Below are positions 3 through 64,000 of a stretch of 64,000 bases of DNA, piece by piece (position 1 is the stretch's first letter; the number at the start of each line of letters is the position of its first letter). Source of the DNA: Thermoanaerobaculia bacterium. GTDB taxonomy: Bacteria; Acidobacteriota; Thermoanaerobaculia; Multivoradales; Multivoraceae. The position numbers were made by a program, and so were the translations under genes. The notes beneath the pieces were generated by a model. The model had not been told where the DNA came from, ran no database searches, and saw nothing but the letters and a program-made list of their open reading frames with translations. The stretch is taken from positions 1,248,001 through 1,312,000 of the forward strand of contig OY762911.1 in the NCBI GenBank assembly GCA_963666565.1, in the 5' to 3' direction.

Positions 3-719
3 CGCTTCTGGCTGCCCGAGTCGCGGCCCCGAGGGGATGGCGCCCAGGCGGAGGACCCCCGCTACTCGATCCTCGCCGCCATCGGCCGGGTGGCCGTTCA
101 ACCGCTGCGTCCGCTCAACCTGCTGATCTGGATCTACGCCGCCGGCCAGATCGGCATGGCGGGCATGACCGCGATCGTCGGCCTCTACCTGGGGCGGCGC
201 TTCGGCGTGGACGAGTCGAACATCGGCCTGTTCTTCTTCTACCTGGGCGGCCTGTCCATCGCTTTCCGCGTGCTCGTTCTGGGACGGGCGGTCCGCCGCT
301 ACGGCGAGCTTGCCGTGCTGCGCGCCGGCGCCGTCAGCTTCGGCGTCGGCCTGATCGCCATCCCGTTCGCCACCGGTCTCTGGACGCTCGGAGCGGCGAT
401 CTTCCTGGTTCCGCTGGGCACATCCCTGCTCTTCCCCTGCACGACGTCCCAGGTCTCGAAGCGCGCCCCCGGAAGCGGCGTCGTCGGGCAGGTGCTCGGC
501 GTCCAGCAGGCGTACGGTAACGCCAGCAAGATCGCGGCGCCGCTGGTCGCGGGCTACCTTTTCCAGGCCGTGTCGCCGGAAGCGCCGTTCGTCGTCATCG
601 GAGCGGTGCTCCTGGTCGCAGCGGCCGCGTCCACCCGCCTTCGCGGCTTGTCGAGCCGACGCGAAGCGGAACGTCGCGCTGCGGCGAACGGATCCGCTCC
701 CCCCGCGGGAGATCGGTGA
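3..719 (+). CDS. MFS transporter, TetA/DHA1-like (5'-truncated by window edge)
   Basis: Frame is open from position 3 (RFWLPES, the typical end of TM6 in TetA-like MFS proteins); six hydrophobic segments follow, with a GQVLGVQQ...APLVAG C-terminal pattern. Confidence 0.8.
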   Translation, partial: RFWLPESRPRGDGAQAEDPRYSILAAIGRVAVQPLRPLNLLIWIYAAGQIGMAGMTAIVGLYLGRRFGVDESNIGLFFFYLGGLSIAFRVLVLGRAVRRYGELAVLRAGAVSFGVGLIAIPFATGLWTLGAAIFLVPLGTSLLFPCTTSQVSKRAPGSGVVGQVLGVQQAYGNASKIAAPLVAGYLFQAVSPEAPFVVIGAVLLVAAAASTRLRGLSSRREAERRAAANGSAPPAGDR

Positions 720-729
720 AACACGCGGG

Positions 730-838
730 CCAGGAGCTTGCGCCGCAGAACGCAGCGAAGCAAGTCTGGGGCGCAGGCGCCGCCGTGCGGACGGGATGGG
801 CCGAAGCACCGAGTCCGCGAGGGGTTTCGGGGCGCTAG
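730..838 (+). repeat. ~110-bp two-hairpin element, copy 1 (family 2)
   Basis: 739-761 is an exact 23-bp reverse-complement match to 62526-62548; similarity extends to the terminal GGCGCTAG; the stems show compensatory changes. Confidence 0.75.
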
Positions 839-60624: not shown

Positions 60625-60699
60625 GGGAGCGGGCGACCGGACGCTCGGGAGCTTCGAGGCCGAACCGGCGCTGGCCGGCGTCCGGTGGCGCCGAGCTAG

Positions 60700-62447
60700 C
60701 CCGCATGTTTCACCGATGCGGCGTTCGCGTCGGGTTTTGAGCTGAGGAAGGCGTTTTGGCGTTGGCCGGAGGCTCTCGCTGGGCTTGGGCGTCGCAGGCG
60801 GGTTCGAGTCGGCGTACGGAAGCGTCGCAGGCGGCTGCGGCGGCGCGGCTGGGCGATCTTCGGACGCACTTCGGCCGGGTGTCGATGCAAGGCGTGTTGT
60901 TGTGGGGTCCGATTCCGAGTCGGGTTTCAGGCCGGCGGGTGGTAGAGGGGTTTTCGTTGGAGGTTTGCCAAGGCCTGGGCGAAGTCGTTCTGCCAGGGGA
61001 AGGCGTCGGACAGGTGGATCCAGATGCGGCGGTGGGTGATGCGCACTCTGGCGGCGACCTTGAGCAGGTGGAGGCGCAGAGTGCCGCACTGGAGGCGGGC
61101 CTTGCCGGTATCCGCGAGAGCGAGCCGTCGCACGGCGGCGAGCAGGACGTAGGCGAAGGAGGAGAAGTAGAGGCGCAGTTGATTGGCGGCCATGGTGGCG
61201 CTCGAGGTGCGGTCGGCGAAGAGGTCGAGTTGCTGCTCCTTGATGCGGTTTTCCATGTCTCCGCGGGCGCAGTAGAGCTGCTCGTAGAGCGGCTGCTTGC
61301 CGGCGCGGCTCCTCCGCAGACTGGACACGACGAAGCGGGGATTCGCGCCCTTCGCGAGCCACTCCGCCTTGCCCACCACTCGCCTCTTGCGAGACCACGA
61401 AGTGTCGGTCCGGTAGCGGAACTCACGGAACCGGCGCGACGCCTTGCCGGTCGCATGGAAGCGCCGCCGCGACTTCTGAAGCGGTCGCCCAATCCGCCTC
61501 ACAAGACGGCGATTCCTTGCCACGCCGAACACGAAGCCGATCCCCTGCCTCTCGCACCAGGCCATGATCCGCTCCCGGCAGAAGCCCGAGTCGCCGCGCA
61601 GGACGATTCGCACCTCCGGCCAAGCCTCCCGAATCCGGGCGACGATCGGCGTCAACTCCCGGATCGTGCCCGCGCTGCCATCCTGATTCGACCGCCGCAG
61701 CCGCGCCAGCAGCAGGTGCTCGCCACAGAACGCGTACAGAGGCATGTAGCAGTACGTACCGTAGTAGCCGTGGAAGAACCGGCCCTCCTGAGCCCCGTGC
61801 AAAGGATCGTCGGTCGCATCGAGGTCCAGCACGATCTCCGCGGGCGCCTCCTCGTGAGCCTCCAGAAACAGGTCCACCAACAGACGATCCAACGCCTTCG
61901 TGTCTGCCGGGATCCGCTTGTAGCGGTCGCCCGCCGCCTTGCCCGGACGAGACAACTCCAGCCGATTCAACGCCGATGCGCTCGCCAGCGGACGACCCTT
62001 GTCCCGCGTCCGACGACGATCCGCGCCCGTGATGTCCGACTTGCCCACCAGCAACGCCATGAACGCGTCCCGGCGAAGCTGGTTGTGGTCATTCAGGTCC
62101 TCGTAGCCCAGAGCCAGACCGTAGACCCGCTGAGCCACCAGATCACGCACCGTGTGCTCGACCGCCGAGGGATTCCGGTAGTCCCGAAAACACGACGCCA
62201 TCCGCTCCAGAAGACCGAGGCGAGCCTCCGTCTCCCGAAGCAGCACGCCGCCGCCCTCAGACGTCAACTGGCCGCCGTCGAAACGAACCGTCACCCGACG
62301 GCGACCGTGGCGACCAAACTCAAGCTGCGACGGAGTACACTCTGTGATCACGGGCCTCGCTCCTGCGGATCCTCCAAATGTCTGATACCACTTGGATTAT
62401 CTGCCGGAAGAGGCCCGATCTCAAATCACCCCCGTGAGATATGCGGG
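60700..62447 (-). mobile_element. IS1380-family insertion sequence, apparently intact
   Basis: 14-bp inverted ends CCCGCATGTTTCAC / CCCGCATATCTCAC; CTAG duplicated at 60696-99 and 62448-51. Confidence 0.92.
60927..62351 (-). CDS. IS1380-family DDE transposase
   Basis: FDGGQLTSEGG, GYEDLNDH, LDLDATDD, RGDSGF, YCARGDMENRIKE. Confidence 0.95.
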   Translation of the reverse strand: MITECTPSQLEFGRHGRRRVTVRFDGGQLTSEGGGVLLRETEARLGLLERMASCFRDYRNPSAVEHTVRDLVAQRVYGLALGYEDLNDHNQLRRDAFMALLVGKSDITGADRRRTRDKGRPLASASALNRLELSRPGKAAGDRYKRIPADTKALDRLLVDLFLEAHEEAPAEIVLDLDATDDPLHGAQEGRFFHGYYGTYCYMPLYAFCGEHLLLARLRRSNQDGSAGTIRELTPIVARIREAWPEVRIVLRGDSGFCRERIMAWCERQGIGFVFGVARNRRLVRRIGRPLQKSRRRFHATGKASRRFREFRYRTDTSWSRKRRVVGKAEWLAKGANPRFVVSSLRRSRAGKQPLYEQLYCARGDMENRIKEQQLDLFADRTSSATMAANQLRLYFSSFAYVLLAAVRRLALADTGKARLQCGTLRLHLLKVAARVRITHRRIWIHLSDAFPWQNDFAQALANLQRKPLYHPPA

Positions 62448-62557
62448 CTAGCGCCGCCAAACCTGTCGCAGGCTCCATGTTTGGCCCCAGCCCCCACCTC
62501 ACCAAGAGGCCGCGTCGCAGAAACCGCTTCGCTGCGTTCTGCGGCGCAGCCTCCTAG
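62448..62557 (-). repeat. ~110-bp two-hairpin element, copy 2 (family 2)
   Basis: Homologous to 730-838; bounded by CTAG at both ends. Confidence 0.75.
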
Positions 62558-63360
62558 TCGGATGTGCGGGAGTAGGCCCCAAGGTCTTGCGAAGTCACCT
62601 CGTCGGACGGCACGAGCCGATAGTGCTTCTCGTCGACGATCTTGACCGCTTCGTCCTCCAGCCGGAGTTCGAACATTGCGATGACCTCGTCGGCCATGAA
62701 CTGGGTAGAGACAGCGCGGCAGATCAAGTCCGGGAACTTCTCCCGACAGCAGAGAATGTCCTGCTTGGTCTGCACGACACCCAGCTGGTCGGAGCCGGAT
62801 TTGGCCTGAACAGGGACCACGTACTGTCGGCCGTGGCGATCCAGGCCCGCGTAGATCTCGTCGATCTCGATCTGGCCGACGTTGGCCACGGTGGTGCGCA
62901 GGTGGCTCTGCAGGGAGTAGGCGACGATCCCCAGGAAGACGTCGATCAGGCGGTTGTAGCGCACCTTGGCGAGTAGCGCCTGCTCGTCGGAGAGCGCGTA
63001 GGCACCGACGATCTCGGGTGTGGCGTCCGGGATCTTGGTTGTGATCAGGGCCGGGTTGGGAACGACGCGGCTGATGGGTACGAGCCGGAATGCGTAGTTG
63101 GAGATTCCGGTACCCTCGATAACCCATTCTTGGCCTTCGGGCTGAGTGGCGACTATCGCGTCGGGGAGCGCCCGCCGATGACGGAAGGCGTAGACGACGT
63201 CGCCCAGGTTGCGAGGCGTGTCGACGCCGAGTCGCTCGGCAGCGGTTGCGAGGTCGTCGCGATGGAAGCTCAGCGACTTCGCGCCGGGCCGATAGCGATC
63301 TTCGAATACGCGTTCGATGATGGCGCTGTAGATCGACGCCTGAGGATCGGGGGCGCTCAC
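62554..63360 (-). CDS. type II restriction endonuclease (PD-(D/E)xK-like)
   Basis: Coupled (GTGA) to a C5 methyltransferase; DEQALL and QIEIDE...PVQAK catalytic-type motifs. Confidence 0.75.
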   Translation of the reverse strand: MSAPDPQASIYSAIIERVFEDRYRPGAKSLSFHRDDLATAAERLGVDTPRNLGDVVYAFRHRRALPDAIVATQPEGQEWVIEGTGISNYAFRLVPISRVVPNPALITTKIPDATPEIVGAYALSDEQALLAKVRYNRLIDVFLGIVAYSLQSHLRTTVANVGQIEIDEIYAGLDRHGRQYVVPVQAKSGSDQLGVVQTKQDILCCREKFPDLICRAVSTQFMADEVIAMFELRLEDEAVKIVDEKHYRLVPSDEVTSQDLGAYSRTSD

Positions 63361-64000
63361 GCGAAGAGCCTGCGCGGCGAGGGTGCAAGCGACGCCTCGA
63401 TGTCCTCTTGCTTTCGCTTCCTGGTGCCGCTCTTGCGGTCGCGTCGGCCGATGGGAACCGGCACTCCCCAATACTCGGAGGCTTTGGACATGTTCATGCG
63501 AAGGAGCTCGACATCGCCAAGGCGTATCGTAGAGCTTGGCTGCGTCGGCCGTATCTCGGCTGCCTGGAGGATGCTGGTGGCCACGGCTCGCGCAAGCGGC
63601 GGAGGGACCGAGTTGCCGATTTGGCGCGCGCCGTGCCACTTCGTTCGATGGAAGCGGAACCAGTCAGGAAACCCGTGTAGCCGAGCCATCTCGCGCACTG
63701 TCACGCACCGCGGCTTGGCGTAGTGAATGGGGCGTGGACTGGTGAAAGCGCCCCGCGCAGAGTCGGTTCCCGCACGCAGAGTGTTCGAGAGCCCACGACG
63801 CGAGAGCTTGAACAGGCGCGAGACCGGTTCCACCGTGCCGGGCGGAGTTTCGGCGAAGCGCCGGCGGGATATGGGCGTGTGGGCCGTACGAGCGCTCGCG
63901 CTGAGGAGGTTGGGATCCCACTCGCGACGGTAACCGTACTGCCAAGCGCCATCGTCGACACAGCGCATCTTCTCGGCGTAGGGACTGGGCACGCCCCAGG
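63357..64000 (-). CDS. DNA (cytosine-5)-methyltransferase, C-terminal part (truncated by window edge)
   Basis: TLRAG target-recognition motif, motif IX RCVTVREMARLHGFPD, motif X QIGNSVPP. Confidence 0.92.
   Translation of the reverse strand, partial: WGVPSPYAEKMRCVDDGAWQYGYRREWDPNLLSASARTAHTPISRRRFAETPPGTVEPVSRLFKLSRRGLSNTLRAGTDSARGAFTSPRPIHYAKPRCVTVREMARLHGFPDWFRFHRTKWHGARQIGNSVPPPLARAVATSILQAAEIRPTQPSSTIRLGDVELLRMNMSKASEYWGVPVPIGRRDRKSGTRKRKQEDIEASLAPSPRRLFA

Follow-up and report, generated by a model that had tools for sequence, protein, structure and literature searches.

The two-hairpin element of 109 nt that occurs in the window (the whole stretch of DNA that was analysed, 64,000 nt in length) is very probably a non-autonomous MITE of a CTAG-inserting insertion sequence (IS) of the IS1182 family (IS5-related, DDE). 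An IS transposase supplied in trans would bind the repeats and move the whole 109-nt unit. The element is an ordinary kind of mobile DNA and opens no new category. It accounts for intergenic sequences of a "conserved structured" class in Acidobacteriota, which might otherwise pass for riboswitch-like RNAs. Its copies appear to rebuild TAG stop codons, and they break metagenome assemblies and mark recent genome change between sister species. Since the partner family can be named (IS1182), the element is testable at the bench.

Two copies are located in the window. Copy 1 (730..838, + strand, 109 nt, subfamily A), recognized by alignment and profile, and copy 2 (62448..62557, − strand, 110 nt, subfamily B) were read and aligned end to end, and the positions, strands, and full-length homology given for them in the first-pass annotation proved correct. 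As also described there, both start with C(C/T)AGGAG, have the 23-mer TGCGCCGCAGAACGCAGCGAAGC in identical form, and end with GGCGCTAG, and their two-hairpin stretches carry compensatory changes. In copy 1, all parts of which are given on the + strand, the left flanking tetranucleotide is CCAG (730..733), a decayed CTAG that is common to the end of a neighbouring 84-nt repeat. It is followed by hairpin 1, which is composed of a 5′ arm, GAGCTTGCGCCGCAGAAC (734..751), with 17 nt identical to the terminal inverted repeat of the IS1182-family IS of genome G332, a loop (752..763) with GCGAAGC at 755-761, and a 3′ arm (764..781) that complements the 5′ arm and thus corresponds to the right inverted repeat of the IS. 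A spacer (782..800), which differs among subfamilies, leads to hairpin 2 (801..830), a 10-bp stem with an A.G mismatch and the loop GAGTCCGCGA. The right flanking CTAG (835..838) equals the single CTAG of the empty site at three relatives' loci (L123, L124, and L128), and its TAG is the stop codon of the upstream gene. In copy 2, the 5′ CTAG (62554-62557, −) gives a TAG stop codon to the ORF at 62554-63639 (−), and the 3′ CTAG harbours an IS1380-family IS (60695..62451, −; transposase ORF 60927-62351), a neighbour that lies outside the element.

The genome of the window (G000) is a single contig of 4.79 Mb with 70% G+C, and in it the element is far from being "present twice", as had been claimed. 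The 23-mer TGCGCCGCAGAACGCAGCGAAGC has 2 exact matches in G000, 24 at ≤2 mismatches, and 38 at ≤4. A profile made from 25 copies yielded 54 matches at E<1e-3, 40 of which are full length, with a median length of 109 nt. Short (<~300 bp), non-coding, and dispersed in many copies, the element has the general properties of a MITE. Two main subfamilies with many members each could be distinguished, copy 1 representing type A and copy 2 type B, and solo halves as well as a longer composite (type C) are also present. Nearest-neighbour identity of the full copies is 0.79 in the median and at most 0.99, a value reached by a tandem pair with one CTAG in common. Of the 40 full copies, 18 retain the GCGAAGC loop motif unaltered and 25 the hairpin-2 loop motif, so most copies in G000 are decaying. 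The "unusual" conservation of the loop between the two window copies arises in part because both of the copies compared are young.

Exact matches to the 22-nt core motif were detected at more than 118 loci in public Acidobacteriota genomes. Among the 80 matches listed, the titles name Vicinamibacterales, Candidatus Multivorans, Thermoanaerobaculia, Holophagales, unclassified Acidobacteria, and one Gemmatimonadaceae MAG. At ≤2 mismatches in 401 sampled Acidobacteriota genomes, the motif occurs 28 times in G000, 2-9 times in each of nine congeners, and 0-2 times in each of the other 391; five additional congeners have 3-16 matches. The distribution of the element across genomes is patchy, with bursts. 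One further genome (G024) has a single motif match with 1 mismatch, from which nothing was concluded. The viral contigs searched for the motif gave 0 matches. In metagenome contigs from four runs, positions 708-843 of the window are covered 20-30x deeper than the flanks, and contigs break at 726-732 and 838-840; this pile-up, together with the breaks, confirms the borders of the repeat. Literature listings and abstracts gave no account of the element, nor of IS1182-derived MITEs in Acidobacteriota.

Comparison with sister genomes indicates that the element moves. All 9 of the G000 copies tested (copy 1 and eight others, E1-E8) have no counterpart at the orthologous sites of sister genomes. For copy 1, the MFS and ERG4/ERG24 genes adjoin each other, with no element between them, at 8 of 8 relatives' loci that were aligned, and the empty site is a single CTAG in L123, L124, and L128 and GTAA in the other five loci. 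Sites E1-E8 were checked against five congeners by coordinates, and alignments took 1-3 relatives per site. A single CTAG was found at the empty sites of E2 (3 of 3 relatives), E3 (2 of 2), E4 (3 of 3), E5 (1 of 1), and E8 (2 of 2), and E1 has CTCTAG in 1 of 3 relatives; the empty sites of E6 and E7 read CTAC/TTAA and GTAG/GTAA, respectively. CTAG is thus present in at least one relative at 7 of the 9 empty sites. Absence at 9 of 9 sister sites together with CTAG at 7 of them shows that the element is mobile and inserts at CTAG, transposition being deduced from presence and absence. At E2, the relatives retain a 15-nt left-end fragment next to CTAG, so that this site could also be a deletion. 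An older copy was also found: locus L007 of another genome has a copy and flanks in common with the G000 copy at 1,428,311. The element has CTAG on both sides where relatives have one, a target-site duplication like that of the IS, for which 4-bp (CTAG) and 2-bp (TA) duplication are indistinguishable.

On the left, 19 of the 40 full copies are flanked by CTAG and 10 by CCAG; on the right, 15 are flanked by CTAG and 7 by CTAC. The change of CTAG to CCAG within CTAGG is presumably the one expected from very-short-patch (Vsr-type) repair, which, we assume, could also account for the scarcity of CTAG in this genome. G000 has 1299 CTAG sites against ~13,190 expected (~10x under-represented), and other palindromic tetramers of like composition have 8,447-49,429 sites. 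Of these CTAG sites, 339 are at predicted stop codons, 382 within genes, and 578 intergenic. A predicted TAG stop is supplied by 17 of the 40 full copies, 8 with the 5′ end and 10 with the 3′ end (one copy does both); the 5′ end serves a co-oriented gene and the 3′ end a convergent gene. Many copies would land on a TAG stop and rebuild it, because CTAG is so rare and a quarter of its sites are stop codons. The proportion of 17 in 40 is about the share expected from insertion into tolerated CTAG, so no separate preference for stop codons is seen.

The partner of the element was recognized in other genomes. PF01609 was searched in two element-rich genomes reached via loci L062 and L089. In a Vicinamibacterales-type genome (G422), 14 loci carry an IS of 1606-1610 bp. 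CTAG|GAGTCTGCGCCGCAG, continuing with (G/A)A, stands at both ends of each of the 13 copies whose ends were read; this end sequence is that of the left end of the element. The 440-aa protein of the IS contains the Pfam domains DUF772, DDE_Tnp_1, and DDE_Tnp_1_6 and reaches 377.7 bits on NF033551, the IS1182-family model (cut-off 270); the scores of the partner transposases are 377.7 and 354.0 bits, both above the cut-off. G332, which belongs to the same genus as the window, has one intact IS of 1583 bp with a 445-aa ORF, whose protein is 68% identical. Its ends are CTAG|GAGCTTGCGCCGCAGAA and CTAG|GAGCGTGCGCCGCAGGA, of which GAGCTTGCGCCGCAGAA is identical to copy 1 over 17 nt. In addition, genome G402 contains a fragment with the same IS end and a more distant IS1182-like IS with CTAG at both ends.

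The left 17-21 nt of the element are therefore the terminal inverted repeat of IS1182-family ISs flanked by CTAG, and it follows that hairpin 1 consists of the left repeat, a 12-nt loop, and the right repeat. Read from its sequence, hairpin 1 is a minimal IS without its gene. The first-pass annotation had proposed a recognition site, and the conserved 5′ part is indeed a recognition sequence for a DNA enzyme. It had also held that the element was not IS debris and named a match to an IS end as the outcome that would refute this; a left end identical to an IS1182-family terminal inverted repeat is what was found. Its broader claim of a functional element stands in so far as the element is structured, multi-copy, and tied to DNA mobility, and is not supported where a structured RNA was meant. 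The element resembles MITEs of IS5-superfamily ISs, being small, non-coding, and multi-copy, with an end identical to the IS inverted repeat, the same CTAG target and flanking duplication as the IS, insertion polymorphism, and persistence as an orphan without transposase. It differs from them in having the full repeat only at the left end, with an internal inverted copy, and in a true right end formed by a second hairpin with the repeat core only. It also looks modular (a hairpin-1 module, a spacer, and a hairpin-2 module), with variants that swap modules.

Several observations run counter to the MITE explanation, among them that the right end has no full inverted repeat. When reverse-complemented, the right end reads CTAG|CGCC(C/G)C..AAAC and matches only positions 7-18 of the IS repeat. 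It is without the outer GAGCTT, and the repeat core GCGCC.C..AAC stands directly against CTAG. About 9-10 of 12 nt are alike between the right end and the repeat core (by eye), in contrast to the identity over 17-21 nt at the left end. A DDE transposase normally requires both repeat tips. Half of the IS loci in G422 (7 of 14) lie directly beside an element, at its hairpin-2 end, with the CTAG in common and in both IS orientations (3 and 4), which hints that the hairpin-2 end attracts insertions. An IS1182-type DDE transposase might use the hairpin-bearing, tip-less end, or the hairpin might steer it to CTAG, although this is unlikely. If it were true, it would mean structure-guided recognition of end or target, undescribed for the superfamily of IS1182-type DDE transposases, and the burst in a genome without cognate transposase would point to cross-mobilisation. 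The odd right end otherwise poses a small question on end recognition by IS5-superfamily transposases.

It also speaks against the MITE explanation that the genome richest in copies (G000, 28 motif matches) is without an IS1182-family gene. The search of G000 for an IS1182-family transposase gave 0 matches, with a best tblastn E-value of 0.38, and PF01609 matched IS1380 copies only. A long autonomous copy was sought in G000 with half-profiles, and none with both element ends was found: of 37 left-right half pairs, 36 are separated by 6-54 nt, and the remaining pair, at 308 nt, is a composite. Truncated or atypical copies are present at 12 listed loci, and no transposase was seen in the six-frame ORFs of 9 of these (55 of 74 frames). 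Across the genus, the presence of the IS and the number of elements fail to track each other. Without an IS1182 transposase, the copies of G000 are orphans, which fits their decay; this genome would have lost, or never kept, the transposase, leaving the orphan copies to degenerate.

It is also conceivable, but decidedly improbable, that the copies of G000 were cross-mobilised by a non-cognate CTAG-targeting transposase of the IS1380 family, or by some unrecognised enzyme. The IS1380-family IS (NF033539) encodes a 474-aa transposase (PF13701), has the ends CCCGCAT(A/G)T(C/T)TCAC with CTAG on both sides, and is present in three identical copies in G000 (in the window and near 987 kb and 4.08 Mb) and in 27 copies in the sister genome G415. 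Cross-mobilisation would agree with the largest motif count occurring in a genome that has no IS1182 transposase, with an active-looking IS1380-family IS that duplicates CTAG and has one copy in the element's own CTAG, and with insertions that are specific to G000, among the relatives examined, in 9 of 9 cases tested. On the other hand, the IS1380 ends (CCCGCAT...) have nothing in common with those of the element, and G415, with its 27 copies of this IS, has only 3 motif matches. Most G000 copies are old, as judged by the nearest-neighbour median of 0.79, in agreement with an earlier burst after which the IS was lost.

The covariation that first drew attention to the element is real. The alignment (n=96) comprises the 2 window copies and 94 full-length sequences out of 126 profile matches in 118 loci; since the motif itself had served to retrieve the loci, its 22 columns are necessarily invariant. 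In this alignment, 88.4% of cells are paired and 13 of 30 pairs show double changes, with 72 double-change cells observed where shuffles give 20.4 (a count of 72 was attained in 0 of 500), although such counts are inflated by kinship of the sequences. In hairpin 2, four double compensatory changes and a single G-T to A-T change distinguish copy 1 from copy 2, and the two have an A.G mismatch in common, exactly as the first reading of the sequence had it; the mismatch position is a G-C pair in 70 of the 96 sequences. In hairpin 1, the majority subfamily has fixed mismatches at pairs 8-56, 17-45, and 21-41. With regard to the cause of the hairpin 1 changes, both arms would have to fit the same transposase rather than an RNA fold. 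IS lineages carry different repeat variants (GAGCTT, GAGTCT, GAGGCT, and others), and if both arms must fit one transposase, "covariation" of hairpin 1 is to be expected.

A structured non-coding RNA or a cis-acting mRNA element (a 3′ stabiliser or terminator) with its fold under selection could also produce compensatory changes in both stems, and both window copies lie in sense orientation between co-directional genes; the predicted fold of copy 2 is also more stable than that of its shuffles (z -2.9). Such a role is nevertheless very improbable. The fold of copy 1 is no better than shuffles (z -1.26). With a rough gene model of G000 made with our own script (3606 genes, 89.7% coding), the copies between co-directional genes number 11 sense and 17 antisense. 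Mismatches comprise 74 G.T against 86 A.C, so neither strand is favoured. Rfam gave nothing relevant at either copy at gathering and relaxed thresholds, the best sub-threshold E-values at the two window copies being 0.27 and 0.048, to unrelated eukaryotic families; the sole match in the window at gathering score is a tRNA at 2038-2111. Moreover, copies are absent at orthologous sites in sister species. The suggestion of a structured RNA made in the first-pass annotation is not supported by the sense and antisense counts, the mismatch counts, or the Rfam result.

Two hairpins, tandem arrays, and the lack of clear terminal inverted repeats for the whole unit recall a REP/BIME/REPIN-type hairpin doublet moved on single-stranded DNA by a RAYT (HUH tyrosine transposase), with CTAG in place of the GTAG head. 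Like REP/BIME/REPIN sequences of E. coli and Pseudomonas, the element is an intergenic hairpin repeat found in tandem arrays, and its TAG-containing terminal tetranucleotide often gives a neighbouring gene its stop codon; in the parts of the account consulted, termini of GTAG REPs are described as supplying TAG stops to neighbouring genes (Di Nocera et al. 2013, PMC3733652). A weak similarity of hairpins 1 and 2, in either orientation, might also be taken in favour of a RAYT: the score is 10 against shuffle means of 6.5-7.2, a value attained by 28 and 76 of 1000 shuffles for the two orientations. This likeness is weak in both orientations and was therefore not used as evidence.

The element differs from REP/BIME/REPIN sequences in its head, CTAG and not GTAG, in its 109-nt unit of two unlike hairpins, and in being without RAYT association, and mobilisation by a RAYT has only a slight chance of being correct. 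The sole PF01797 gene of G000 is flanked by a different REP family, and 5 of 13 genomes of the genus are without a PF01797 match. Four genomes without PF01797 (G402, G405, G206, and G410) still match outside the flanking genes, although many of the matches in G410 are the neighbouring 84-nt repeat. A check for proximity to a recombinase or HUH gene had been recommended at the outset, and 0 of 9 RAYT loci of the genus have the element in their flanks. The left end, furthermore, is a DDE-type IS repeat. The copies show no leading/lagging bias either: with the origin at ~0.88 Mb and the terminus at ~3.2 Mb, the given strand of the 40 best G000 copies is leading in 21 and lagging in 19. The same tally speaks against an IS200/IS605-derived element (PATE), for which the strand bias is absent; G000 has no TnpB (PF07282), and its single Y1 gene is tied to another REP.

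An IS110-family IS was also considered as a partner and rejected, since it inserts into the other REP family and not into the element. Five identical IS110-family ISs (1454 bp) are present in G000, at 347 kb, 725 kb, 740 kb, 804 kb, and 2.46 Mb, and four of the five sit within copies of the other REP family, at GGGTGCGCGGGTC|TTCTGACCCGC; that REP flanks the single RAYT gene. MITEs of the IS630/Tc1-mariner type are similar to the element in their palindromic CTAG target, the TA inside CTAG being the insertion point of IS630, and in GC-rich genomes this target leads to the same tendency to sit on TAG stops. The element is unlike them in its partner: no IS630-type DDE_3 (PF13358) was found in G000, and the matching IS is assigned to the IS1182 family by NCBIfam.

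An integron attC-like site for site-specific recombination or gene capture, to which single-strand-foldable imperfect palindromes adjoining genes might point, has practically no probability, since the genes flanking copy 1 are syntenic core neighbours without the element at 8 relatives' loci, the ends are CTAG and not attC-type core sites, the orientation of the copies is unrestricted and they lie at stop codons as well as in divergent promoter regions, and the left end is an IS repeat. The earlier idea of gene capture next to acquired genes likewise finds no support: the MFS and ERG4/ERG24 neighbours of copy 1 are adjacent at those same 8 loci, and the IS1380-family IS adjoins copy 2 solely because the element's CTAG served as the insertion site for that IS as well.

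Some copies bear on how the element, taken as an IS1182-family MITE, was put together. The junction after hairpin 1 reads NTGG in 78 of the 96 aligned sequences and CTAG in 1 of 96, with CTAG there in a few other copies, and two modules bracketed by CTAG may have fused long ago to give the unit. Type C composites occur in G000 at 595,776-596,053, 1,681,6xx, 2,820,0xx, and 686,8xx. In these, a different inverted-repeat element of ~200 bp lies between the 5′ arm plus loop of hairpin 1 on one side and hairpin 2 on the other; the nested ~200-bp element is also found beside solo hairpin-2 modules. In another genome, a variant (L066 and L116) keeps the left end and the right end GGGGCGCTAG and has a different internal hairpin pair, that is, modules have been swapped between fixed ends. 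In other genomes (L076:275-387 and L106:238-348), the hairpin 1 loop is inverted, with TTCGCTTCGCTGC instead of GCAGCGAAGCGAA, as if it had been flipped between the arms.

Genes for AAA-ATPase_like/PDDEXK_9 proteins, which lie beside two truncated copies, were tried as another candidate and rejected: the element is present in only 2 of 24 such loci (85 kb), which was judged close to background. Genomes G421 and G422 (7.6 and 8.0 Mb; L168-L191) have 19-20 AAA-ATPase_like (PF09820) matches each, and PDDEXK_9 (PF08011) is found at the end of one AAA-ATPase_like gene (L089). These genes of G421 and G422 seem to form a large family of paralogues that has no connection with the element.

Immediately upstream of copy 1, a repeat of ~84 nt occupies 650-733 (+) of the window. 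Its end, ..GGTGAAACACGCGGGCCAG, resembles that on the right of the IS1380-family IS (~20 of 22 nt alike, by eye), and the repeat appears to have replaced the original C-terminus and stop codon of the MFS gene. More copies of this repeat are located in G000 at 4,138,242 and 3,247,730, and many are present in G410.
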